A stretch of 64,000 nt of DNA from Candidatus Doudnabacteria bacterium (GCA_963768175.1 CAVYGQ010000001.1:840717-904716); one strand, 5' to 3'. Shown: positions 4,925 to 56,853, numbered from the stretch's first letter. Made by a program: numbers and translations. Notes: generated by a model not told the origin, from the sequence alone.

Positions 4925-4992
4925 CTCTAAATCTCCAAAAAAGAAAAACCCTCTATGTATTGCCAAGGCCGTCGGGCCTGTTTGGCAATAGA
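4925..4992 (-). terminator. Rho-independent terminator for the dipeptidase operon
   Basis: The long inverted repeat ccctctatgtattgccaa...ttggcaatagaggg is followed on the minus strand by a T run. Confidence 0.6.
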
Positions 4993-5212
4993 GGGTCTTT
5001 CCGAAAAGTCAAAAGAAGCTTTTTGTAAGCCGAAAGATTTACCTTGCGGCCCATCGCCTTATAAATAAAGGCGATATACATCCTGACGAATCAGGATTGG
5101 TTAAAAAACTTTTAGTTGTTTTTTATTTTGGTTTCTTCTGATGAAGAACTAACTTTTCTATACTAAGTATAGCAAATTTTTAGGCAGTTGTCTAGGGCCC
5201 TGACCCGGCATT

Positions 5213-6199
5213 TTATAGCCTGCTAACTATTTTTGCCACGTTTCCATACATAATGCCGTAAATTTCATCATCCGTTAGTCCTGCTATTTCCGAGAGCTGT
5301 TCCGCAATAACCGACAGTTTTCCAATCTCATCAAACTCTTCAAAGAGATGTTGGGCGTCAAGCCCGCCGAAATCGGTCCCGATTGCCGAATATTCTGTTG
5401 AACCGGTTATATCACCGGCTTGTTTGTATGTTTCTATATAATTTTTGAAAGTTGGGAAAAAAGGATTTGCTGGCGTGAACCCGACCACTCCGCCGCGCTT
5501 GGCGATTTCTTTAAGTAATTCGGGAGTGATTAACCGCTGTTTTTCCGAACCCAGGCCGGTGTGGGTGGTGACAATTTTATTATAGTTTCGTACGCGCTCC
5601 AAAATATCGGCAGTAGTTTTGTGGTTGGCATGGGCGGTGTCTATTATCATTTTCAGCTCAACAAGCCGGTCAATTACTTTTTTTCCAAGGTCGGTCAAGC
5701 CCCTGTTTGGATCGCCTGACGAACCTCCGCCAAGCAGGTTGTCGTGGGAGTAGATTGGCCCAACTGACCTGACGCCGCGCGCATACAATTCGTCAGCTAT
5801 ATCGGGCGCAGTAACAATATCCCCGCCTTCTAAATGCAGGATGATTTGTTCTTGGCTGTAAGGCTGATTTTGCAAGCGTAAGTCTTGCGGTCGTGTAAGT
5901 ACTTTAAAGTCTTCGGTTGATTGGTAGTAATCGATCAACCTATTATATTCGTTGCGCACGCCTGCCAATACAACTTCATTTCCGGTTAAGGCGGCTTGTT
6001 TTATCTCCGTATTTGCCCGGCGGTAGATGGTGGCAAAATGCAAGTCTAGCAGTCTTAAGCCTTCGCGCGGCAATTGTTTGCCTCGTTCTTTGGCATGGGC
6101 AAGTTCGGGGTTGTTTAAAATTTGGCACAGCCAGGGATTGAGCCGGTCTTGGTGGAAATCCGCAGCGCGAAAATTTTTACCTTCCTTGGTGTTTAACAT
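5213..6199 (-). CDS. Membrane dipeptidase, peptidase M19 (renal dipeptidase) family
   Basis: An M19-like region (GLTDLGKKVIDRLVELKMIIDTAHA) and a 328 aa length. Confidence 0.6.
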   Translation of the reverse strand: MLNTKEGKNFRAADFHQDRLNPWLCQILNNPELAHAKERGKQLPREGLRLLDLHFATIYRRANTEIKQAALTGNEVVLAGVRNEYNRLIDYYQSTEDFKVLTRPQDLRLQNQPYSQEQIILHLEGGDIVTAPDIADELYARGVRSVGPIYSHDNLLGGGSSGDPNRGLTDLGKKVIDRLVELKMIIDTAHANHKTTADILERVRNYNKIVTTHTGLGSEKQRLITPELLKEIAKRGGVVGFTPANPFFPTFKNYIETYKQAGDITGSTEYSAIGTDFGGLDAQHLFEEFDEIGKLSVIAEQLSEIAGLTDDEIYGIMYGNVAKIVSRL

Positions 6200-6202
6200 A
6201 AG

Positions 6203-7141
6203 CTATTTGCGGTTAAGGGATCTATAGAAACCTAAAAATAGATTATTTAAATTTTGGCCTTGGAATTTGGCGCTGGCAGTCGCCACGCTTGCCGCGCTAA
6301 AACCCGGGTGTACATCTACTTCTATGAGAAAAAGCTTGTTGCCTTTAATTAGAATATTGGATTGGGAAAAAGTGCGGCAACCAAGCGCTTGGTGGGCGAT
6401 TTTGCTAATCTGTTTGACTTTTTTGATAATTTTGGGATTTAAGTGTGCCGGGAATTCTTTTAAAATCGCAGCCTTTCCATCTTTGATTTTTTTGGAAAGT
6501 AGGTCGCCGAGGACGCCGACCGGATCAAAAATTTTTGGTTCCCGGTTTCCAACAACAAGGCATGTTATTTCATAAGTCTTATTTATGTACTGTTCGGCAA
6601 TCATAGCCGAAACAGTGCCAATGTGCTTGTTGACTATTTTAATGCAGTTTTTTTGGCTTTTTGCAATAAACAATCCTCGGCTGTCAGTGCCGGCAACGTC
6701 TTTAATAATACATGGATAACCAATTCTGCTGACAGCTTTTAGTATAGTAGCCCTGGAATTTGTCCATAAGACTTTATCAATAAAAATGTCTTTTGCTACA
6801 GGTAAATGGCATTGCCGGAAAAAGGTTTTGGATAAAAATTTATTGGTTCCCAGAAAGGTTGCCAACGGCCCGGAGCCAAAGTACGGGATATTATAAAGTT
6901 CCAAAAAAGATTCTATGTCCGCTTCATTGCCCCGGCCATAAGCATTTTTTAAGACCACGCCGACTTGTTTGCGTTTAAAATCCTTTAATAATTCATCTGC
7001 CCCGGTGCGGCCGAAGTCATAAGCCTTAATCCGGAAATTTTTTAACTCGCGCTTCAAATCCAAAAGCTGTCTTTGATTTGCTTGAGCTTGCCCGGGATTG
7101 CCGTAAATAACGACGCCTAATTTTATAAGTTTGTTTTTCAT
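6203..7141 (-). CDS. ATP-grasp ligase, D-Ala-D-Ala ligase-like paralog
   Basis: An ATP-grasp fold with similarity to the Ddl C-terminal region. The ATGA overlap with the upstream 487-aa ORF indicates translational coupling. Confidence 0.6.
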   Translation of the reverse strand: MKNKLIKLGVVIYGNPGQAQANQRQLLDLKRELKNFRIKAYDFGRTGADELLKDFKRKQVGVVLKNAYGRGNEADIESFLELYNIPYFGSGPLATFLGTNKFLSKTFFRQCHLPVAKDIFIDKVLWTNSRATILKAVSRIGYPCIIKDVAGTDSRGLFIAKSQKNCIKIVNKHIGTVSAMIAEQYINKTYEITCLVVGNREPKIFDPVGVLGDLLSKKIKDGKAAILKEFPAHLNPKIIKKVKQISKIAHQALGCRTFSQSNILIKGNKLFLIEVDVHPGFSAASVATASAKFQGQNLNNLFLGFYRSLNRK

Positions 7142-8601
7142 AAATTGTTAAAGGTAATGCTGGCTAAATCGTTGAAATTTATGGTTTTCTCGAGTTTTTT
7201 TGCGGGCGGGATATATTTGGACGAGATATAGTCGTAAATATCGGCGGCGCCGGTTTTAAAGAAGTCGCCATATTTCATACTCACCGCCGCTTCAAGATAC
7301 TTTGGACTTAAAGGCCCGTCACAAAATATATCATGCGCGTATAAAGCCTTAAGCTGTCCGTCAAAGCGCCTGAAAAAAAGCGCCATACCGGCAACCAGCC
7401 CGGAGGTGTCAATGTTTTTAATAAGCGGGATTTCTTCCATAAAGGCGGAATGTTCAAGCGTTTTTAGCCATGCATTTTTAAACAGGCTTAAATAAATTGC
7501 GGACCCGTAGCCGGTTAGCGGACGCACGCCGGAGTAAAAATTTAACATTGAAAAAATCGAAAACAGGCTCGGGTAAATTTCTTTTTCCGCTAGCTTCTCC
7601 ATTATAGAACCCTTGTCCATATGGATTTTAAGATGTTCAAATCTGCTGTCGGCGGGAATCAGATATTCTCCTTGAAGGTACATGCGTAAAGAACGAGGCT
7701 GCCCGGGGTACTTTCTCCAGAAAAAGTGGGTGCCCTTTCCTTCTCTTTCCCGCCAGGTGATTATAATTCCTCGAAAGTTTTCCAGTATTTGATCCCGGAA
7801 AGGCTTATCAAAATAAGCGGCGGTTATAAAATTGTCTTCTTTTAACAGTTCAAGCAGACATTGGGTAGTAAGTTCTTCCTGGGTTATATAGAGCAAGTCC
7901 GGCAAAGTGGGGCGGGAGGCCTCGGGAAACAACAGTGGCCAGGTTTCTTTCACAATGACGGTAATTTGGTCGGCGTAGTCTTTGCATCTGTCAAAATTGA
8001 TTGATGAAATAAAGGTGTTAAAATCTTGTAAGAACTTTTGTTCTCCTTTAGTGAATTCATGCCATTGGTGGCTGATTTTAAGTCTGGCGACAAAATCAAA
8101 ATCTCTTTTTGTAATATAATAAGAGCAATGTTCCCGTTCGGCTACGCTAAAAAGGGGAACGTGCTTTCCATGCAGACAAAAGCCGCTTTTCCCGAAATAA
8201 TTATTGGGGGGCACATCGCCGCTGGAGACGACGATGGTGGCGTCCGCTTTTTCCTTTTGGAAAAATTTATTGACGCTGCTTATAACGTTGGCAGACAATA
8301 AAAACGGGTGGTTTAGTATCTGGTGATGGTCGGCAATATTGAAAGCAAGGGAATTTGCGAAGTTAATTTTTAATTTTTCTTTTGCATTGCCGCCGAACAA
8401 CCCTTCAAATTTACGGGTGATTTTATTTTTTAGCAGCTCCTGCCGTTTAAGGTGTAGAGCCGGAGTTTTAAAATTATATAGCCCGTCCGAAAACTCCCTG
8501 ATGCTTAATGGCATTTCAAAATATTCCCGGTAAAGCGGCGCATAACGGGTAATTTGGGAGATTATTTGGTCGCGCTCTTTTAAAATTTTAGCTATTTCCA
8601 T
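7138..8601 (-). CDS. Hypothetical protein of 487 aa with no recognised domain
   Basis: A long uninterrupted ORF, coupled to the ATP-grasp gene by a 4-nt overlap. Confidence 0.5.
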   Translation of the reverse strand: MEIAKILKERDQIISQITRYAPLYREYFEMPLSIREFSDGLYNFKTPALHLKRQELLKNKITRKFEGLFGGNAKEKLKINFANSLAFNIADHHQILNHPFLLSANVISSVNKFFQKEKADATIVVSSGDVPPNNYFGKSGFCLHGKHVPLFSVAEREHCSYYITKRDFDFVARLKISHQWHEFTKGEQKFLQDFNTFISSINFDRCKDYADQITVIVKETWPLLFPEASRPTLPDLLYITQEELTTQCLLELLKEDNFITAAYFDKPFRDQILENFRGIIITWREREGKGTHFFWRKYPGQPRSLRMYLQGEYLIPADSRFEHLKIHMDKGSIMEKLAEKEIYPSLFSIFSMLNFYSGVRPLTGYGSAIYLSLFKNAWLKTLEHSAFMEEIPLIKNIDTSGLVAGMALFFRRFDGQLKALYAHDIFCDGPLSPKYLEAAVSMKYGDFFKTGAADIYDYISSKYIPPAKKLEKTINFNDLASITFNNL

Positions 8602-8681: not shown

Positions 8682-9434
8682 TTATTTTGTTTCCGCCTTA
8701 TCCCACATATACCAAAACCATTTACGATAGCTGTCGGCCAAATCCTTACTGTGCAAAATAAAGAATACAACATTATCAGAAAGCCTAAATAGTTCCAGGC
8801 CGGTGTAGGTAACTACATAGTCGCCAAAGACATGAAAAATGGAATTTGTGGAATATTCTTTTGGCAGAAAACGATATTTTAAAAGTCCCGGCCAGGTTTT
8901 GGCAAAATCTGGCGCCTGGGTTTTGATTTCATGATCAAATAATTGGTGAAATTTAATTTTTTTCCTGGCGGCTTCTTTAAAAAACGCCTGCCTGCTGGCT
9001 TCCAGTTTCGGTTCAAACCAGCCGCCTTTGGCCCCTACAACAAAATTTTCCTCACCAACGCGCAAAACATCCCGCCAAAGATTTTTTTGCCCTTCCAAGC
9101 CCCGATAAATATAGGCTTCTTCCGGGGCAATGCGACGGGTGAATTTCTTTTTTAAATCAGGAAGTATTTTTCCTAGGCTGGTTTGTTTTTCCGCCAGTAA
9201 TTCCGTCAGCTTGTCTGGGTCAACTGCATTGTAGAGATTTTCCGAAGATGAAAAAATCTCAAAGACTAAGCCTTTGTCTATAAGCCGGGCAATGGCATCA
9301 TAGGCATTGCGGCGGTGAATTTTGGCACTAACAGCTATCTTGCTAATACCCGCTTCCCCTGTTTCCACAAGGGATTCGTAAATTTTGGCTTCATTTGGCG
9401 AAAGCCCTAAGCTTAGGAATAAATCTTGGTTCAT
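8682..9434 (-). CDS. TrmB-family transcriptional regulator (paralog 1)
   Basis: N-terminal wHTH (LGLSPNEAKIYESLVETGEAGISKIAVSAKIHRRNAYDAIARLIDKGLV) with a TrmB-like C-terminal domain. Confidence 0.8.
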   Translation of the reverse strand: MNQDLFLSLGLSPNEAKIYESLVETGEAGISKIAVSAKIHRRNAYDAIARLIDKGLVFEIFSSSENLYNAVDPDKLTELLAEKQTSLGKILPDLKKKFTRRIAPEEAYIYRGLEGQKNLWRDVLRVGEENFVVGAKGGWFEPKLEASRQAFFKEAARKKIKFHQLFDHEIKTQAPDFAKTWPGLLKYRFLPKEYSTNSIFHVFGDYVVTYTGLELFRLSDNVVFFILHSKDLADSYRKWFWYMWDKAETK

Positions 9435-9569
9435 ATAATGTGGTGATGATTGCTACCATGTGGCGCTATTGGCCACTCAATATAGATAATATATGCTTAT
9501 CTGTCAACCGTCAACCCCGCCGCTCGCGAGCGGCGGGTCAAGAAACGGCTCTGATAGAAGGAGGAATAC

Positions 9570-9894: not shown

Positions 9895-9967
9895 GCTAAC
9901 TATCGTGTGAGGTCGCTAGTACGAGCGAAGCTTGGGCGAGCTAGTGGGAGATTAAGAAAGGGGTAAT

Positions 9968-10552
9968 ATGAAAGCGGTACTGTTTTTGGCCATTTGTCTC
10001 ACCATCCCCGCTTCGGCCCAGGACTGGCAGACGCGGGACAGCCTGCACGTGCAGGCGGACGTCAGCAAAAATTGGTTCGTCTCCGGCTGGTCGGTGACCA
10101 ACCTGCGGACCGAAACCCCCAACAACACCAACCTGTTCGCAGGCGCAGGCTACCGCGGCAAAAACTGGTGGCTGGAGGCCATAGTACAGCACCAGTGGAA
10201 CACTAAGGCTAACCAGTGGATGCTGGACTTCCGGTTCAACAAGCAGACCGAACGGTGGCGCTTGTATGCCGAGGTCTCGCCTTTTCTGATCAAGAAGGCC
10301 TTCTACGAGTACGTTATTGTAGAACGGCGGACTTGGAAAGGCTTCTCGTTCGGCGCGGAGACCGAGAACACGCACCAGATTGGGCCGGACATGATCGCAA
10401 TAGGCCCTAGGGTTAGTCGCAAGCTCGGCCGGTTTGCTGGCTTTGATGCATCGGCCGCTATTGCGGTTCGGCTTAGCCCTGTCGGTGGGCATACTGAACC
10501 GCGGTTGTCCCTGACGTTCAACCGCCGGCTTTATTTGAGAGACCGCAAGTAG
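9968..10552 (+). CDS. Secreted protein with a signal peptide, possibly beta-barrel-like; GC-rich
   Basis: N-terminus MKAVLFLAICLTIPASAQD, followed by alternating hydrophobic/polar beta-like segments rich in W, Y and R. An SD (aagggg) is present. GC is about 60% against about 42% for the host. Confidence 0.5.
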   Translation: MKAVLFLAICLTIPASAQDWQTRDSLHVQADVSKNWFVSGWSVTNLRTETPNNTNLFAGAGYRGKNWWLEAIVQHQWNTKANQWMLDFRFNKQTERWRLYAEVSPFLIKKAFYEYVIVERRTWKGFSFGAETENTHQIGPDMIAIGPRVSRKLGRFAGFDASAAIAVRLSPVGGHTEPRLSLTFNRRLYLRDRK

Positions 10553-10622
10553 CGCGCGGTCTCTCTTTTTTATTTGTTTTTATGCTATAATAAGCAGTAT
10601 ATTATTAAAACAAAAAATTACT

Positions 10623-11357
10623 ATGCAAGATAAGTTTGGCGGAAAAGAACCAAAGTATTACGATATTTTTACTGGTTTGTTTGTGGCAATATTGCTGATT
10701 TCAGAAATTACCTCTACAAAAATTGTGTCTTTGGGGTTTATCCAAACAGCAGGCGCCGCGGTGCTGTTCCCTATCTCTTACATTTTTAGCGATATTTTAA
10801 CCGAAGTTTACGGCTACGCCAGAGCCAGGCGCGTCATGTGGATCGGCTTTGCGTCTTTGGTATTGCTTTCAGCAATCTTAATTATTGTCCAGTATCTGCC
10901 GCCGGCGCCCTCCTGGCACAACCAGGCCGCTTACGACGTGATTTTGGGTGTTGTGCCCAGAATTTCCTTTGCCAGCGTGATAGCTTATTGGGCCGGCGGT
11001 TTTGCCAACGATTTAGTCTTGGCCAAAATGAAGCTTTTGACCAAGGGCAAATATTTGTGGACGCGCACCGTGGGCTCCACCGTGGTTGGCCAGGCCGTGG
11101 ACACTTTTTTGTTCCTTAGCATCGCGTTTTATGGTACCTTGCCCAACGCGGTTATTTTACAAATTATCTTCAGCTTTTATTTGTTTAAGTGCGGTTATGA
11201 AGTCGTAGCCACCCCGATTACTTATTTTGTGGTCAATAAATTAAAAAAGGCCGAAGGCCTGGATGTGTTTGATTACCATACCAATTTCAACCCTTTCAAG
11301 TTCAAGGTTGAAAATTCGGTAGACCAAGGGGCATCCTTGGACCCGGAACAATCTTAG
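10623..11357 (+). CDS. yhhQ: Queuosine precursor transporter (YhhQ/DUF165 family)
   Basis: A multi-TM protein carrying the SDILTEVYGYARARRV motif typical of DUF165/Vut transporters. Confidence 0.7.
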   Translation: MQDKFGGKEPKYYDIFTGLFVAILLISEITSTKIVSLGFIQTAGAAVLFPISYIFSDILTEVYGYARARRVMWIGFASLVLLSAILIIVQYLPPAPSWHNQAAYDVILGVVPRISFASVIAYWAGGFANDLVLAKMKLLTKGKYLWTRTVGSTVVGQAVDTFLFLSIAFYGTLPNAVILQIIFSFYLFKCGYEVVATPITYFVVNKLKKAEGLDVFDYHTNFNPFKFKVENSVDQGASLDPEQS

Positions 11358-11377: not shown

Positions 11378-12154
11378 CTATTGGTGTTTCAAAAACGGTT
11401 TTAATATTGGCGCGTATAAATCTTTTTTCGGCGGAATAACCAATTTGTGATATAAATCCTTTTTGGTAAACTTAACAAATTTCGCCCCTCTTAGCACCAC
11501 CACCGGCGTTTGCTCGCCGCCTTCGCCCATTATCAGCGCTCCCAAGTCCGCCAGCGTGTCCACCAAATTGCGCTGGGTGTATTTTAATTTGCGTTTAAAA
11601 ATATCTTTTTGTCCGCGGTAATCAAACAGTGGCTTTAACCCCCAAAAGCCGATGCTTACCCCTTGCGTTCCCCATCTTAGCGGCGTGGTGCGGCTGTCCA
11701 CGGCCACGGCCGCCAGTTTTTTTGTGCCAAATTTTGTTTGGTATCTTTTGACAATTTGTTTAAGTAATAAATTAACATTCTTCGGCCAAAGAATAAAATA
11801 ACCATTGCCGTTGCTTTCATCTATGCCGGCCGAAGGTATAAGCGTGTAGTCTTTAATGGTCAAAATAATTTCCGAATCGCCAATCATGTAAGCCGGCAAG
11901 CTAAAATCGGCTTCTTTTTTTACAAGCTGGTGTTTTTGGTTGTAGCGTGCCGATTTATCCGCCGTCGCTGAAGCTTTGGCGGACAAGTCGGCCTTCTCGA
12001 TTTTCACGCATCTGCCCTGATGAATCGCCAAAATCTTGGAAGCAATCAACAAAACATCGCCTTCTTTAAGCTTAGGCAGGCGTTTGTCCAGCTCTTGCAA
12101 AATGTCGTCCTTTGGCGGCAGGAACTTGCGGGTTTTTATGGGAATGAATTGCAT
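11378..12154 (-). CDS. CofE-like (F420-0:gamma-glutamyl ligase family) protein
   Basis: IPSAGIDESN and LLIASKILAIHQG regions resemble the F420_ligase domain. The family assignment is tentative. Confidence 0.45.
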   Translation of the reverse strand: MQFIPIKTRKFLPPKDDILQELDKRLPKLKEGDVLLIASKILAIHQGRCVKIEKADLSAKASATADKSARYNQKHQLVKKEADFSLPAYMIGDSEIILTIKDYTLIPSAGIDESNGNGYFILWPKNVNLLLKQIVKRYQTKFGTKKLAAVAVDSRTTPLRWGTQGVSIGFWGLKPLFDYRGQKDIFKRKLKYTQRNLVDTLADLGALIMGEGGEQTPVVVLRGAKFVKFTKKDLYHKLVIPPKKDLYAPILKPFLKHQ

Positions 12155-12795: not shown

Positions 12796-12872
12796 GGGCT
12801 AGTAGCTCAGCTGGTTAGAGCACGTCTCTTATAAGGACGGGGTCGATGGTCCGAATCCATCCTAGCCCACCA
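12796..12872 (+). tRNA. tRNA-Ile (anticodon TAT)
   Basis: Cloverleaf with acceptor GGGCTAG/CTAGCCC, anticodon loop CTTATAA, a GATGG/CCATC T-arm and an encoded CCA. Confidence 0.6.
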
Positions 12873-52819: not shown

Positions 52820-54403
52820 ATGGACTTGTTTGTTCCAAAATTTATCCAATACCAATTATACCTGCTCCAGCTGGAAAATTATGAGCTGGGAAGGTATTGG
52901 AAATTGCTTATAAAAAAGGGAGTTTTCCCTAAAAAAAGCCAACCTTTGCGCAAAGAGCTGGTCTGGACCGCTAAAGCTCGGGCGTTAATGCTTATGGCTG
53001 TGGCCCTGCATGGTTTGGTGGTCGTTTTGGTTGGGCTTATGGTTTTAACTTTAAAGCCGGGCATAGATAACTTTTTTACCACAATAATTTTGGCGGTATT
53101 AATTTTGTTGCCGTTTTATTTTGTTTTTTTCAGTCTGGCTTTGTTAATCCTTAAGCCTTTGGACACTCTGGTAAAACAAAGCCTTGTGGCTAAAGCCAAA
53201 ACCAAGCTGGCTGGATTGCCTGATGTCAAGATAATCGGCGTTGCCGGCAGTTACGGCAAAACTACAATGAAGGAAGTGTTGAGGGCAGTGCTAAGTGCTA
53301 AGTTCAAAGTGCTAAGTACGCCGGAGAGCATAAACACGCCGGTGGGGATTGCCAGATGGATTATAAATAAAATAACGGACGAAACCCAAATTCTGATTGT
53401 AGAAATGGGGGAGCATTATGAGAAAGACGTTAAAGAAATTTGCGATATAGCAAAACCCGACATCGCGGTGGTTACCGGCATTAACGAATCCCACTTGGAG
53501 CGGATGAAAAAAATGGATACGGTTATTGCCACAATTTTTGAAATCGTGAGTAACGCCCAGCCCGGCGCGGCTATTGTGCTAAACGGCGATGATCGCAGGG
53601 TTATGGAGAATTATAAAAAATTTGTCTGGCCAGACCATCGGCTGGAATTTTTTACAAAAAATCCCGGCAGTGAAAAGTGTAAAGTGAAAAGTGCAAAGTT
53701 TAACACAGACAAGCTGTGTTGGAATTTAGAGATTGATGATCTTGGCTCGGTAGAACTGGATTTACTTGGGGAATACGCGTTGGGCGACGTTGACGCGGCC
53801 GTGAAAATTGCCAAAAGTTTGGGTATGAGCAATGAGCAAATTATCGCGGGGATCAAAAATATCAAGCCCGTGGAGCACAGGCTCCAGCCGATAAAGTCTG
53901 CCACGAATGTTTTGGTAATAGACGACAGTTACAACGGCAATTCCGACGGAGTAGTGGAAGCCATAAAAGTTTTGTCGCGCTTTTCCGCCAAAGGCGGATC
54001 CGCCTCCGGCGGAGAAGGCCGCCGGAAGATTTATATCACTCCCGGGCTGGTGGAAATAGGCAAAAGTTCCGCCGATATTCATCGCAGTATTGGCAAACAG
54101 CTGGCGGACGTTGCGGATGTGGTTATTTTGATAAAAAATAGCGCGACGGGGTTTATTGAAGAGGGAATCCTCTTAGGGCGTCATTCTGACCCTGAGCGGA
54201 GCGAAGGGGAAGAATCTCAAACTAAGGATAAAGAGATCCTTCGTCCCTCGGATGCACTCGGGGCTCAGGATGACGCCGCTGGTAAGAGACCAAGAATTAT
54301 CTGGTTTAATTCCGCCTTGGAAGCGTACGCGGGGCTAAAAGACATTTTAAAACCCGGGGATGTAATTTTGTTTCAGAACGATTGGGGAGACCAGTATTTG
54401 TAA
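52820..54403 (+). CDS. murF: UDP-N-acetylmuramoyl-tripeptide--D-alanyl-D-alanine ligase with an N-terminal TM extension and two in-frame repeat insertions
   Basis: Mur ligase ATP-binding motif GVAGSYGKTTMKE. Two in-frame inserts are present: the KGGSASGG cassette at 53990 and a palindromic element of about 100 nt at 54177-54277. Confidence 0.85.
   Translation: MDLFVPKFIQYQLYLLQLENYELGRYWKLLIKKGVFPKKSQPLRKELVWTAKARALMLMAVALHGLVVVLVGLMVLTLKPGIDNFFTTIILAVLILLPFYFVFFSLALLILKPLDTLVKQSLVAKAKTKLAGLPDVKIIGVAGSYGKTTMKEVLRAVLSAKFKVLSTPESINTPVGIARWIINKITDETQILIVEMGEHYEKDVKEICDIAKPDIAVVTGINESHLERMKKMDTVIATIFEIVSNAQPGAAIVLNGDDRRVMENYKKFVWPDHRLEFFTKNPGSEKCKVKSAKFNTDKLCWNLEIDDLGSVELDLLGEYALGDVDAAVKIAKSLGMSNEQIIAGIKNIKPVEHRLQPIKSATNVLVIDDSYNGNSDGVVEAIKVLSRFSAKGGSASGGEGRRKIYITPGLVEIGKSSADIHRSIGKQLADVADVVILIKNSATGFIEEGILLGRHSDPERSEGEESQTKDKEILRPSDALGAQDDAAGKRPRIIWFNSALEAYAGLKDILKPGDVILFQNDWGDQYL
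53990..54013. repeat. 24-nt palindromic cassette AAAGGCGGATCCGCCTCCGGCGGA in frame in murF
   Basis: Identical to the copies in hss and murA. Confidence 0.85.
54177..54277. repeat. Palindromic element GGCGTCATTCTGA...CTCAGGATGACGCC (copy C), inserted in frame near the murF C-terminus
   Basis: It encodes GRHSDPERSEGEESQTKDKEILRPSDALGAQDDAA and keeps the reading frame. Confidence 0.85.
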
Positions 54404-54440
54404 TGACAAAAATTAAAAAAATGACATAATTGACAAAAAT
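54402..54440. repeat. AT-rich TGACAAAAAT repeat (copy 4, short) between murF and alr
   Basis: taatgacaaaaattaaaaaaatgacataattgacaaaaatt. Confidence 0.7.
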
Positions 54441-54442
54441 TC

Positions 54443-55588
54443 ATGGGGACAATCGGAAAAATTTTTAATAAGATAGTATCACCAAAAATTAACTATCAAC
54501 CGCTTATAGAAGTGAGGATTTTTAAAGATGCCTTGCTGCATAATTTACACGTTTTCCAAGAAAAATATCCGAGCCTTGAGTTTGCCCCAGTGATAAAAAG
54601 CAACGCTTACGGACACGGTATGGTACAGGTGGCAAAAATTTTTGACAGCAAACCCAAAGCTTTTTTTATGGTGGACTCATTTTATGAGGCTTTGGTGTTA
54701 AGGCGCGCCGGAATTAAATCTAAAATTTTAATGCTGGGTTTTAACCGGATTGAGCAATTGATTAACCCCAAATTAAAAAATTGTTCCTCGGCGATTATTG
54801 ATTTCTCCACTTTGCAGGAAGTGGTGGCAAAATTAAAAAAGCCGGCGATCTTTCATCTCAAGATTGATACGGGTATGCACCGGCAGGGACTGTGGGGGGA
54901 AGAAGTAAATAAGGCAATTGCGTTAATCAAGTCTAACCCAAACTTTAATTTGGAGGGCTTATGCAGCCATTTGGCGGATGCCGACGGGGCTGGGCAGGAT
55001 TTTACCAAACAGCAGATTAGACTGTGGAATCAAGTCGTGGAAAAATTCAAACAAAACTTTCCCTCCATTAAATATTTCCATTTAGCCAATACCGCCGGGA
55101 CTTTTTATACCAACGAAATTACGGCCAACGTGGCGCGCATCGGCATCGGGCTGTATGGGTTAAATAATTCACAGTTTGAAAAGTTGGACTTAAAACCGGC
55201 TTTGGAAATGGCCTCTATTGTCACTTCCGTAAAAACTATTCCGGCTGGGGAGAAAATCGGTTACAATATAACTTATGAGGCGCCGAAAGAAACAAAAATC
55301 GCCACCGTACCGGCGGGATTCAACGAAGGCGTGGACCGCAGGCTTTCAAATAAAGGATTTTACCAAATTAAGGGGCAAAACTGTCCTTTGCGGGGCAAGG
55401 TGAGCATGAACATAAGCAGCGTGGAAGTAACCAGTGTCCCTGGAGTTAAAGTGGGGGATGAGGTGGTAATTATAAGCCGAAATCCGAGCGATAAAAATTC
55501 GGTGGAAAATATTGCCAAAATGTGCGACACGGTACATTACGAAATTCTGGTTCATATACCTTCTATATTAAGAAGAATAATAGTGTAG
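54443..55588 (+). CDS. alr: Alanine racemase
   Basis: PLP-lysine motif VIKSNAYGHG, 381 aa. Confidence 0.88.
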   Translation: MGTIGKIFNKIVSPKINYQPLIEVRIFKDALLHNLHVFQEKYPSLEFAPVIKSNAYGHGMVQVAKIFDSKPKAFFMVDSFYEALVLRRAGIKSKILMLGFNRIEQLINPKLKNCSSAIIDFSTLQEVVAKLKKPAIFHLKIDTGMHRQGLWGEEVNKAIALIKSNPNFNLEGLCSHLADADGAGQDFTKQQIRLWNQVVEKFKQNFPSIKYFHLANTAGTFYTNEITANVARIGIGLYGLNNSQFEKLDLKPALEMASIVTSVKTIPAGEKIGYNITYEAPKETKIATVPAGFNEGVDRRLSNKGFYQIKGQNCPLRGKVSMNISSVEVTSVPGVKVGDEVVIISRNPSDKNSVENIAKMCDTVHYEILVHIPSILRRIIV

Positions 55589-55637
55589 CGCGCCGATTTA
55601 TCGGCATCCTAAGATAGCCCATAAATGGGCACGCTAC
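55585..55637. repeat. Compound palindromic intergenic repeat (copy 2 of 2)
   Basis: GTAGCGCGCCGATTTATCGGCA...AGCCCATAAATGGGCACGCTAC. Confidence 0.8.
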
Positions 55638-55653
55638 AGATGGAAAAAATTTT

Positions 55654-56853
55654 ATGAAAAAAAACATTGGCGTATTTTTTGGCTCGGGCTCTACAGAACA
55701 CGATATTTCGATAATTACGGCCCAGCTGATTATTGCCGGGCTAAAAGGTTTGGAATACCCGGTAACCCCCGTCTATATTACCAAGCAGGGCAAATGGATG
55801 CTCGGGGAAGAGCTGGGGAACTTGAAATTTTTTATTGACCCGAGTAAAAAAGTTGAAGACGAAAAAAAATATTACGAATATTATTTGGATATGCAAGAGT
55901 TGGTGGGGAAGATGGTGTTTAAGCGTAAGGGATTTTTGGGCAAATCTATTGTCATCGATGTGGCTTTTCCGGCCTTACACGGCGCTTTCGGCGAAGACGG
56001 AACCATTCAGGGGGTGTTCGAGATGCTCGGTGTGCCTTACGTGGGCTGCGGCGTGCCGGCCTCGGCCATTGCCATGGACAAGGCTCTGACCAAGATAATT
56101 ATGAAGGACGCGGGCGTGCCGACCACTAAATTTGCTTTTTTCTATAAACAGGATTGGGAAAATAGCAAGCCGCAAATTATAAATCAAATTAATCAGCTCA
56201 AGTGGCCGGTGTTTGTAAAACCGGTACATTTGGGCTCTTCCATCGGCATCGGCAAAGTAAAGGCGGGGGATATTAAAGATTTGGAAAATAAGATTGAAGT
56301 TGCGCTACATTATGACGAAAAAGTTTTGGTGGAAGAAAGCGTGGAAAATTTAATGGATGTGACATGCTGTATAATCGGCAACAACCAGCTGCGCGCCTCG
56401 TTGCTTCAGGAGTCGGTGTTTAGCAGCGAACTGTTTGATTTTGAAAACAAGTATATTTCCGGCGGCGGCAGCCAGACCGGCAAAGCCGTCAATAATTTGA
56501 TTATTCCCGCCAGACTGGACGAGGCCACCACCAAAGCAATTCAGGATTGCGCCATAAAAGTTTATAAAGCTTTGGGCTGTTTTGGCATCGCCAGGGTGGA
56601 TTTTTTATACAACAAGCAAACCAAAGAATTTTTTGCCAATGAAGTTAATCCTTTACCGGGTACGCTTTATCACCATTTGTGGAAAGCCAGCGGTTTGGAA
56701 TTAGGCCAACTTTTGCAGCAGCTGATAAAATTTGCGGAAGAAAAATACGAACAAAAACGCGAAATTACTTTTACCTTTGAATCTAGCGTGTTAAAACAGT
56801 TAAGTAGCGTTAAGTTAAAATCAAAAAAGTTAGATAGTGGTGTTTCATCATAA
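55654..56853 (+). CDS. ddl: D-alanine--D-alanine ligase (canonical copy, with a C-terminal extension)
   Basis: N-terminal Dala_Dala_lig_N (IGVFFGSGSTEHDISIITA) plus an ATP-grasp C-terminal domain. Confidence 0.88.
   Translation: MKKNIGVFFGSGSTEHDISIITAQLIIAGLKGLEYPVTPVYITKQGKWMLGEELGNLKFFIDPSKKVEDEKKYYEYYLDMQELVGKMVFKRKGFLGKSIVIDVAFPALHGAFGEDGTIQGVFEMLGVPYVGCGVPASAIAMDKALTKIIMKDAGVPTTKFAFFYKQDWENSKPQIINQINQLKWPVFVKPVHLGSSIGIGKVKAGDIKDLENKIEVALHYDEKVLVEESVENLMDVTCCIIGNNQLRASLLQESVFSSELFDFENKYISGGGSQTGKAVNNLIIPARLDEATTKAIQDCAIKVYKALGCFGIARVDFLYNKQTKEFFANEVNPLPGTLYHHLWKASGLELGQLLQQLIKFAEEKYEQKREITFTFESSVLKQLSSVKLKSKKLDSGVSS

Follow-up and report, generated by a model that had tools for sequence, protein, structure and literature searches.

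Organization of the locus

The sequence analyzed in this study is a 64,000-nucleotide stretch of the genome of a Candidatus Doudnabacteria bacterium (GCA_963768175.1 CAVYGQ010000001.1:840717-904716), hereafter called the window, and our subject is an operon of three genes encoded on its minus strand at positions 5213 to 8601. The first gene in the direction of reading (7138-8601, minus strand) encodes a protein of 487 amino acids (aa), which we named X487. It is followed by a gene for a 312-aa ATP-grasp ligase (6203-7141, minus strand), which has the fold of D-alanine--D-alanine ligase (Ddl) and belongs to a discrete clade outside Ddl, and by a gene for a 328-aa protein of the M19 zinc dipeptidase family, with an amidohydrolase fold (5213-6199, minus strand). 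The genes are tightly coupled: the TGA stop codon of the X487 gene overlaps the ATG start codon of the ATP-grasp gene in the tetranucleotide ATGA, and three nucleotides (nt) separate the TAG stop codon of the ATP-grasp gene from the ATG of the M19 gene. These reading frames and the overlap had been noted in a preliminary description of the window made from the sequence alone, and their coordinates were confirmed.

Pfam assigns the 328-aa protein to Peptidase_M19 (E value of 4e-32) and the 312-aa protein to Dala_Dala_lig_C (5.7e-19). The ligase and the dipeptidase each represent a new clade within an established family, while X487 represents an unannotated superfamily with a known fold. All three proteins are strongly conserved, with identities of 45-65% across several candidate phyla of the Patescibacteria.

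A Ddl-type ligase outside the Ddl family

The window also carries a canonical murF-alr-ddl cluster at 52820-56853, as the preliminary description had pointed out, and this provides an internal standard for the classification of the ATP-grasp protein. The canonical ddl (55654-56853) passes two family models, with 330 bits (cut-off 262) and 286.8 bits (cut-off 245.65), and alr (54443-55588) likewise exceeds its cut-off of 168, with 290 bits; the murF-like gene (52820-54403, plus strand), with 196 bits on TIGR01143, is under the cut-off of 288.6. The operon protein fails both of the Ddl models TIGR01205 (103.5 bits versus 245.65) and PRK01372 (111.6 bits versus 243). Because it fails these models while the canonical ddl of the same window passes, it is not a bona fide Ddl.

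Homologs of the ATP-grasp protein form a sharply bounded set of 41 clusters scoring 227-692 bits, beyond which the next sequences, at 74 bits or less, are true Ddl enzymes. The true Ddl matches carry the N-terminal domain signature PF01820, but it was detected in no member of the clade (41 members, the window protein included). The clade was monophyletic in 98 of 100 bootstraps of a neighbor-joining tree, and 80 of 100 showed reciprocal monophyly between it and a narrow sample of 15 Ddl sequences. The ligase thus does not group within Ddl, and the earlier proposal of a Ddl-like paralog distinct from Ddl agrees with the model scores, the domain content and the tree. Its closest relatives in both sequence and fold are nevertheless Ddl and VanA, and its three-domain ATP-grasp fold is nearest to that of Ddl.

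Alignment to the Escherichia coli DdlB structures 1iov and 2dln revealed clade-wide replacements in the active site. E15, S150 and Y216 of DdlB, which form the triad that binds D-Ala, are replaced by Q, by D (in the motif GTDSRG), and by D or K, respectively, and N272 is replaced by D (in the motif EVDVHPGF); K144, K215 and E270 are retained. Judged by sequence, the protein resembles Ddl in being a carboxylate-amine ligase, yet it falls outside that family. The missing Glu, which in DdlB holds the D-Ala alpha-amine, points to a carboxylate donor that probably lacks a free alpha-amine. Several database entries label members of this clade “D-alanine--D-alanine ligase,” and these labels are probably wrong.

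The window ligase departs from its own clade at two positions. Of the 66 alignment columns that are at least 90% conserved in the other 40 clade members, it deviates at Q260 and N262 only, in the codons CAA-TCC-AAT (Q260-S261-N262) at 6356-6364 on the minus strand; the first of these positions is R in 40 of 40 relatives and the second is D in 39 of 40. Q260 and N262 align with R255 and D257 of DdlB, the former a catalytic residue and the latter, together with E270 and N272, a magnesium ligand. Across these four DdlB positions (R255, D257, E270 and N272), the clade has R, D, E and D, while the window ligase has Q260, N262, E274 and D276. The R260Q and D262N changes may signify that this ligase is inactivated or altered in function, or they may reflect an assembly error. 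Neither X487 nor the M19 protein of the window shows a comparable deviation at conserved positions.

A divergent M19 dipeptidase

The M19 protein matches PF01244 with 112.1 bits against a cut-off of 26, and the match spans positions 29-317 of a profile 319 positions long. In the window protein and its relatives, the motifs of the metal ligands (DFHQD, HLEGGD, DTAHANH, THTG and GTDFGG) are intact, so that the HxD element, the bridging Glu, the two His residues of the binuclear zinc site and the catalytic Asp are all present; these residue roles are assigned by alignment, with human DPEP1 as the reference. Like the ligase, the protein belongs to a discrete clade, with 52 members at 207-737 bits followed by a gap down to 81 bits. 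It shares its Pfam family and metal motifs with DPEP1, Streptomyces Sco3058 and the GliJ-type Cys-Gly dipeptidases but is very divergent from them (its best sequence match in the PDB scores 38 bits), is cytoplasmic (no signal peptide was found in the protein sequence) and is paired with an ATP-grasp gene. M19 enzymes, among them renal dipeptidase and Sco3058, favor dipeptides with a C-terminal D-amino acid.

X487 resembles BshC in fold

The preliminary description could assign no motif to the 487-aa protein. With respect to family models this stands, since the protein has no match in Pfam or NCBIfam, and 40 X487 members had no Pfam match at E values up to 10, the BshC family included. Structure and conservation were more informative. 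In fold comparisons, the X487 model scored 17.2 against BshC (4wbd), with 332 residues aligned and a Foldseek E value of 7e-5; 11.5 against class I LysRS; 5-7 against CysRS, MshC, GlnRS, ArgRS, TyrRS and GluRS; and about 4.9 against cyclodipeptide synthases. The modeled structure therefore has a BshC-type fold, and X487 is, on this model, a BshC-like member of the class I synthetase (HUP Rossmann) fold. No relationship could be detected at the sequence level: PDB sequences, 4wbd among them, gave no match to either the profile of the close alignment or that of the superfamily.

Close homologs of X487 comprise 108 clusters with 43-61% identity over the full length, all labeled hypothetical. They are almost all from Patescibacteria (Doudna-, Kerfeld-, Buchanan-, Moran- and Gribaldobacteria and Parcubacteria), and there are matches at 34-37% in Streptomyces and Kitasatospora. 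When 1.84 billion representative proteins were searched with a profile, with clusters drawn at 50% identity, the superfamily came to 979 clusters at E values up to 1e-3 and to 312 at 1e-30. A motif N-I-x-D-H-H-Q..N-H-P is conserved at residues 88-99, GTHFFW at residues 290-295 is invariant, and the residues invariant throughout the superfamily are H92, Q212, G290 and F294. In the model, the first strand (86-88) and the first helix (99-112) flank the D-H-H-(Q/G) motif, an arrangement that would put the motif where class I synthetases have HIGH. A match of the RecJ DHH motif to the X487 profile (E value of 0.7) was set aside as chance, the fold match being to BshC.

Gene neighborhoods of X487 in Patescibacteria

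Loci of relatives (numbered L001 onward) were collected by scanning one genome per species and by exact look-ups, and the counts that follow refer to 18 Patescibacteria species loci. X487 is followed by the ATP-grasp and M19 genes in 7 of the 18 (L010 to L013 and L017 to L019; the L011 contig ends within the ATP-grasp gene). The same gene order occurs in L004 and L036, and the 4-nt overlap between the X487 and ligase genes recurs in several related loci. Recurrence of the order in 7 of 18 related species loci indicates that the arrangement is not chance, and the three-gene unit proposed earlier is thus syntenic in many relatives. About 28 X487 clusters apparently share a contig with a cluster of the ATP-grasp or M19 clade, as judged by equal lengths of the longest contigs recorded for each. 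The M19 gene adjoins the ATP-grasp gene in every locus whose contig runs past the latter, and the M19 enzyme is clearly bound to the ligase.

The unit is not universal, however, because X487 and the pair also occur separately. In nine of the 18 loci (L008, L009, L015, L016, L020, L021, L023, L030 and L032), X487 is accompanied by one to five paralogous proteins with an unassigned N-terminal domain and a C-terminal swivel phospho-His domain containing an invariant TCHAAI motif. A gene for a stand-alone PPDK_N ATP-grasp domain usually lies near these swivel-His paralogs, and one further locus (L022) has only PPDK_N fragments downstream of X487. By their sequences, the swivel-His and PPDK_N genes are a dikinase like rifampin phosphotransferase, split into pieces: the architecture is that of rifampin phosphotransferase and phosphoenolpyruvate synthase distributed over separate genes, but with several paralogs per locus. 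In L006, a swivel-His gene directly follows X487 with a 4-nt overlap, and L011 and L017 have both modules in the surroundings of X487. Within the 64-kb window, neither a PPDK_N nor a swivel-His gene was detected.

Two further arrangements separate X487 from the ligase and dipeptidase. In L035 (3548-8090), X487 is missing, and the ATP-grasp and M19 genes come immediately after murT-gatD, the genes for lipid II amidation, and gyrBA; none of the other loci seen has a neighborhood related to the cell wall. In the remaining species locus (L014, from the same genome as L005), a Doudnabacteria relative has X487 alone, without ligase and dipeptidase genes, in the same rsmI-yebC-ruvC context as in the window. 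The noncoding sequence that follows the M19 gene in the window lies directly after X487 in this relative, which indicates that the ligase-dipeptidase pair is an insertion/deletion module. Together, the pair without X487 and X487 without the pair show that the link between them is facultative.

A link of the three genes to riboflavin or other cofactors was considered and rejected. In L017 (11433-13449), a Parcubacteria locus, the trio is followed by genes for riboflavin kinase, riboflavin synthase and lumazine synthase and then by a swivel protein and PPDK_N, but L017 is alone in this; the neighbors in L010, L018 and L019 are unrelated housekeeping genes, and the riboflavin genes are probably incidental.

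Fusion proteins and actinomycete relatives

More distant relatives of X487 provide further associations with ATP-dependent ligases. P0259, a 942-aa protein (L037, 3311-6139), consists of an X487 domain fused to a RimK-like ATP-grasp domain, and its gene adjoins one for an ornithine/arginine decarboxylase. A second fusion, P0311 (846 aa; L040, 5635-8175), joins X487 to a CntK_N racemase-like domain and is preceded by a gene of the GCS2 glutamate-cysteine-ligase family and a LAL-type ATP-grasp gene.

Actinomycete homologs of X487 directly follow a full-length HypF-like carbamoyltransferase (L001 to L003, L025, L026 and L031). In Streptomyces clavuligerus (L001 to L003) and in L031, the operon has the order DUF3865 (haem-oxygenase-like), HypE-like, HypF-like, X487, and L025 likewise carries a DUF3865 gene. 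ATP-grasp, arginase, isochorismatase and major facilitator superfamily genes lie near the S. clavuligerus operon, and the actinomycete locus looks like an uncharacterized biosynthetic cluster. In a literature search, we found no description of the X487-like family, the trio, its alternative partners, or the HypF/HypE/DUF3865 cluster.

A proposed role in small-molecule synthesis

We propose, at a little under even confidence, that the operon encodes a cassette of three cytoplasmic enzymes for the synthesis of a small amide-linked metabolite and is not a second route to D-Ala-D-Ala. The preliminary description had suggested a pathway to a small peptide or dipeptide, and we too infer a single shared pathway of this general kind from the arrangement of the genes. 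Tight coupling, recurrence across candidate phyla, sequence conservation and the existence of a fusion protein argue that X487 and an ATP-grasp enzyme cooperate. Because X487 itself lacks a HIGH or KMSKS signature and is encoded beside an ATP-using enzyme, the two probably act together. From the analogy to BshC and MshC, X487 would most likely couple an amino-acid-type carboxylate to an amine acceptor. The translationally coupled ATP-grasp enzyme would form an amide bond via an acyl-phosphate, with substrates other than D-Ala and D-Ala, and the M19 zinc hydrolase would cleave a dipeptide-type bond to release, mature or recycle the product. The R260Q and D262N changes may mean that the ligase step is weakened or modified in this genome.

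Several observations weigh against this proposal. X487 is more often followed by the swivel-His and PPDK_N module (9/18) than by the ligase pair (7/18), the two contexts are intermixed on a tree of X487, and both the pair without X487 (L035) and X487 without the pair (L005/L014) exist. The window ligase itself is without the Arg kept by all 40 relatives and the Asp kept by 39 of them. The likeness to BshC is one of fold, at 8% identity and with no link between sequence profiles, and the functions of all three clades are predicted ones. Moreover, according to a 2018 review (PMC5790435), the reaction of BshC has not been reconstituted in vitro, possibly for want of a cofactor, substrate or protein, and we found no later reconstitution in a literature search. 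Since BshC has never been reconstituted, the analogy between it and X487 is weak with respect to mechanism.

The first of these observations could also be read to mean that the locus comprises two independent units that are often adjacent, one being X487, alone or with the split dikinase, and the other being the ATP-grasp and M19 genes inserted beside it. The frequency of the swivel context, the 4-nt overlap of X487 with a swivel-His gene in L006, the free-standing pair of L035, the interleaving of contexts on the tree, and the Doudnabacteria relative that has the same downstream context and X487 without the pair, as expected of an insertion/deletion module, are all consistent with this reading. 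It has difficulty with the recurrence of the ATGA coupling of X487 and ligase in distant lineages, with the X487-ATP-grasp fusion protein, and with the linkage of other X487 relatives to ATP-grasp or GCS2 ligases. L011 and L017, which have both modules, are also compatible with one larger system, and we consider that independent units are an unlikely explanation.

Remodeling of the cell wall in the manner of vancomycin resistance would account for the pairing of a ligase with a dipeptidase: the ligase would make D-Ala-D-X or another stem-peptide dipeptide, the M19 enzyme would destroy the normal dipeptide, and X487 would supply or attach an unusual residue. The kinship of the ligase with Ddl and VanA, the preference of M19 enzymes for C-terminal D-residues, and the position of the L035 pair directly after murT-gatD are in keeping with such a role. 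On the other hand, the DdlB residues E15, S150 and Y216 are replaced by Q, D, and D or K throughout the clade, and the Van ligase models give the ATP-grasp protein 30-65 bits against cut-offs of 495-775. Unlike the VanHAX cassette, the operon has no VanH-like dehydrogenase, no M15-family VanX and no VanRS two-component genes; the cell-wall neighborhood is seen in one locus only, and the window has an intact canonical ddl at another site. We regard a Van-like function as quite unlikely.

It is improbable that X487 draws on aminoacyl-tRNA, as cyclodipeptide synthases do, or adenylates its own substrate, as MshC does, and so supplies the pathway with an aminoacyl group without help from the ATP-grasp enzyme. 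The idea follows from the class I synthetase-like fold, in which, as modeled, D-H-H-(Q/G) takes the position of HIGH; the lack of HIGH and KMSKS sets X487 apart from MshC and the class I synthetases (LysRS-I, CysRS, GluRS/GlnRS and ArgRS). X487 has no match to a tRNA-synthetase family in Pfam or NCBIfam, BshC, for which no tRNA binding is known, is by a wide margin its best structural match, and no tRNA gene adjoins the operon, the nearest (tRNA-Ile) being 4 kb away. A role in defense or immunity, which the preliminary description had also raised, found no support, as PADLOC returned no match for X487, the ATP-grasp protein or M19 and only weak helix-turn-helix matches for a neighboring TrmB-family gene.

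A broader conjecture arises from the variety of partners, and we offer it as a long shot. X487-type proteins, and by extension BshC, might be amide-forming transferases that are unable to activate their own acyl substrate and need a separate ATP-using activator, and the trio might then make a thiol-cofactor-like pseudopeptide. The activator would be the Ddl-fold ATP-grasp enzyme in the trio, the split PPDK_N/swivel-His dikinase in other Patescibacteria, HypF/HypE in actinomycetes, and the fused ATP-grasp domain in P0259. The product of the trio would be a low-molecular-weight compound containing cysteine or another amino acid, and M19 would serve as a Cys-Gly-type dipeptidase. If this were true, a separate activator would be the missing partner behind the failure to reconstitute BshC in vitro.

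Comparison with known systems and significance

BshC, the putative cysteine-adding enzyme of bacillithiol biosynthesis, is the nearest structural relative of X487, but identity between the two is only 8-12%. No bshA or bshB (GT4 or LmbE) genes were seen beside X487 in the window or in the short flanks of the loci, and BshC is not described as having ATP-grasp, dikinase or HypF partners. A parallel in organization is provided by clusters for natural products of peptide type, for example the one in which the MetRS-like hydrazine synthetase FuzG acts with the ligases FuzC and FuzH (PMC13149037; for a related prediction, see PMC2922099). There, too, an enzyme with the fold of a class I aminoacyl-tRNA synthetase is combined with ATP-grasp amide ligases for a small product resembling a nonribosomal peptide. 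The synthetase-like enzyme in those clusters is a MetRS paralog, however, whereas X487 is BshC-like; the trio has no cupin or N-monooxygenase partners; and the host is an actinomycete, in contrast to the 0.95-Mb genome of the Patescibacteria member studied here.

Patescibacteria have tiny genomes and almost no biosynthetic capacity, which makes a conserved three-enzyme cassette for a small molecule notable. Neither Pfam nor NCBIfam has a model for the X487 superfamily, whose members are linked time and again to ATP-dependent ligases, in one case by fusion, and occur in biosynthetic-looking operons of Streptomyces. Characterization of a single X487 protein would bring annotation to about a thousand clusters (979) and could help to explain the BshC reaction, which has so far defied reconstitution.

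Flanking elements and other features of the window

A gene for a TrmB-family winged-helix regulator (8682-9434, minus strand; Pfam TrmB, 5.9e-14) lies 80 bp upstream of the X487 gene on the same strand and could be a regulator of the operon or the first gene of its transcript. The best sigma-70-like promoter match of the region, TTGACA-17-TATATT at 9479-9507 on the minus strand, which agrees with the consensus at 11 of 12 positions and is a consensus match alone, is upstream of the TrmB gene. A TrmB gene also lies two genes away from the X487-ATP-grasp fusion gene of L037, and the two TrmB proteins are 47.6% identical over 246 aa. TrmB was rejected as a constant partner because it occurs beside that fusion locus only and not beside the other trios.

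Directly after the M19 stop codon is a structured noncoding stretch (4925-5212, minus strand). The 241 nt folded (4925-5165) have a minimum free energy of -84.5 kcal/mol, with a z score of -8.3 relative to shuffled sequences, and the stretch terminates in a long GC hairpin followed by a T-run, at about 4935-4990, which is likely the terminator of the operon. Over 88 nt, its 5' part shares 70% identity with the spacer that follows X487 in L005/L014 (7661-7748), and the stretch contains a promoter-like site, TAGACA-17-TATACT (5194-5166). No Rfam family matched it at gathering or relaxed thresholds; it may be a small RNA in its own right or a regulatory region that has been conserved.

Elsewhere, the window contains ruvC, yebC, rsmI, gyrA and tyrS, and this gene content, like all the close homologs, assigns it to the Patescibacteria (CPR). 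The murF-like protein of the canonical cluster is atypical in its length of 527 aa and in a hydrophobic N-terminal extension of about 120 aa. Upstream of the operon, at a distance of 2-3.5 kb, are a gene for a Vut_1 vitamin/queuosine-precursor transporter (10623-11357, plus strand) and a CofE-like gene of the F420-0:gamma-glutamyl-ligase family (11378-12154, minus strand), the latter for another amide ligase; F420 synthesis is not expected in the genome that carries it. A GC-rich island at 9950-10560 (57% GC, compared with about 43% in its flanks) possibly represents foreign DNA. It contains an open reading frame of 194 aa (9968-10552, plus strand) with a signal-peptide-like N terminus and no Pfam match, which is overlapped on the opposite strand by one of 183 aa. 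The tRNA-Ile gene of this region (12796-12872, plus strand) has the anticodon TAT, that of an isoacceptor uncommon in bacteria.

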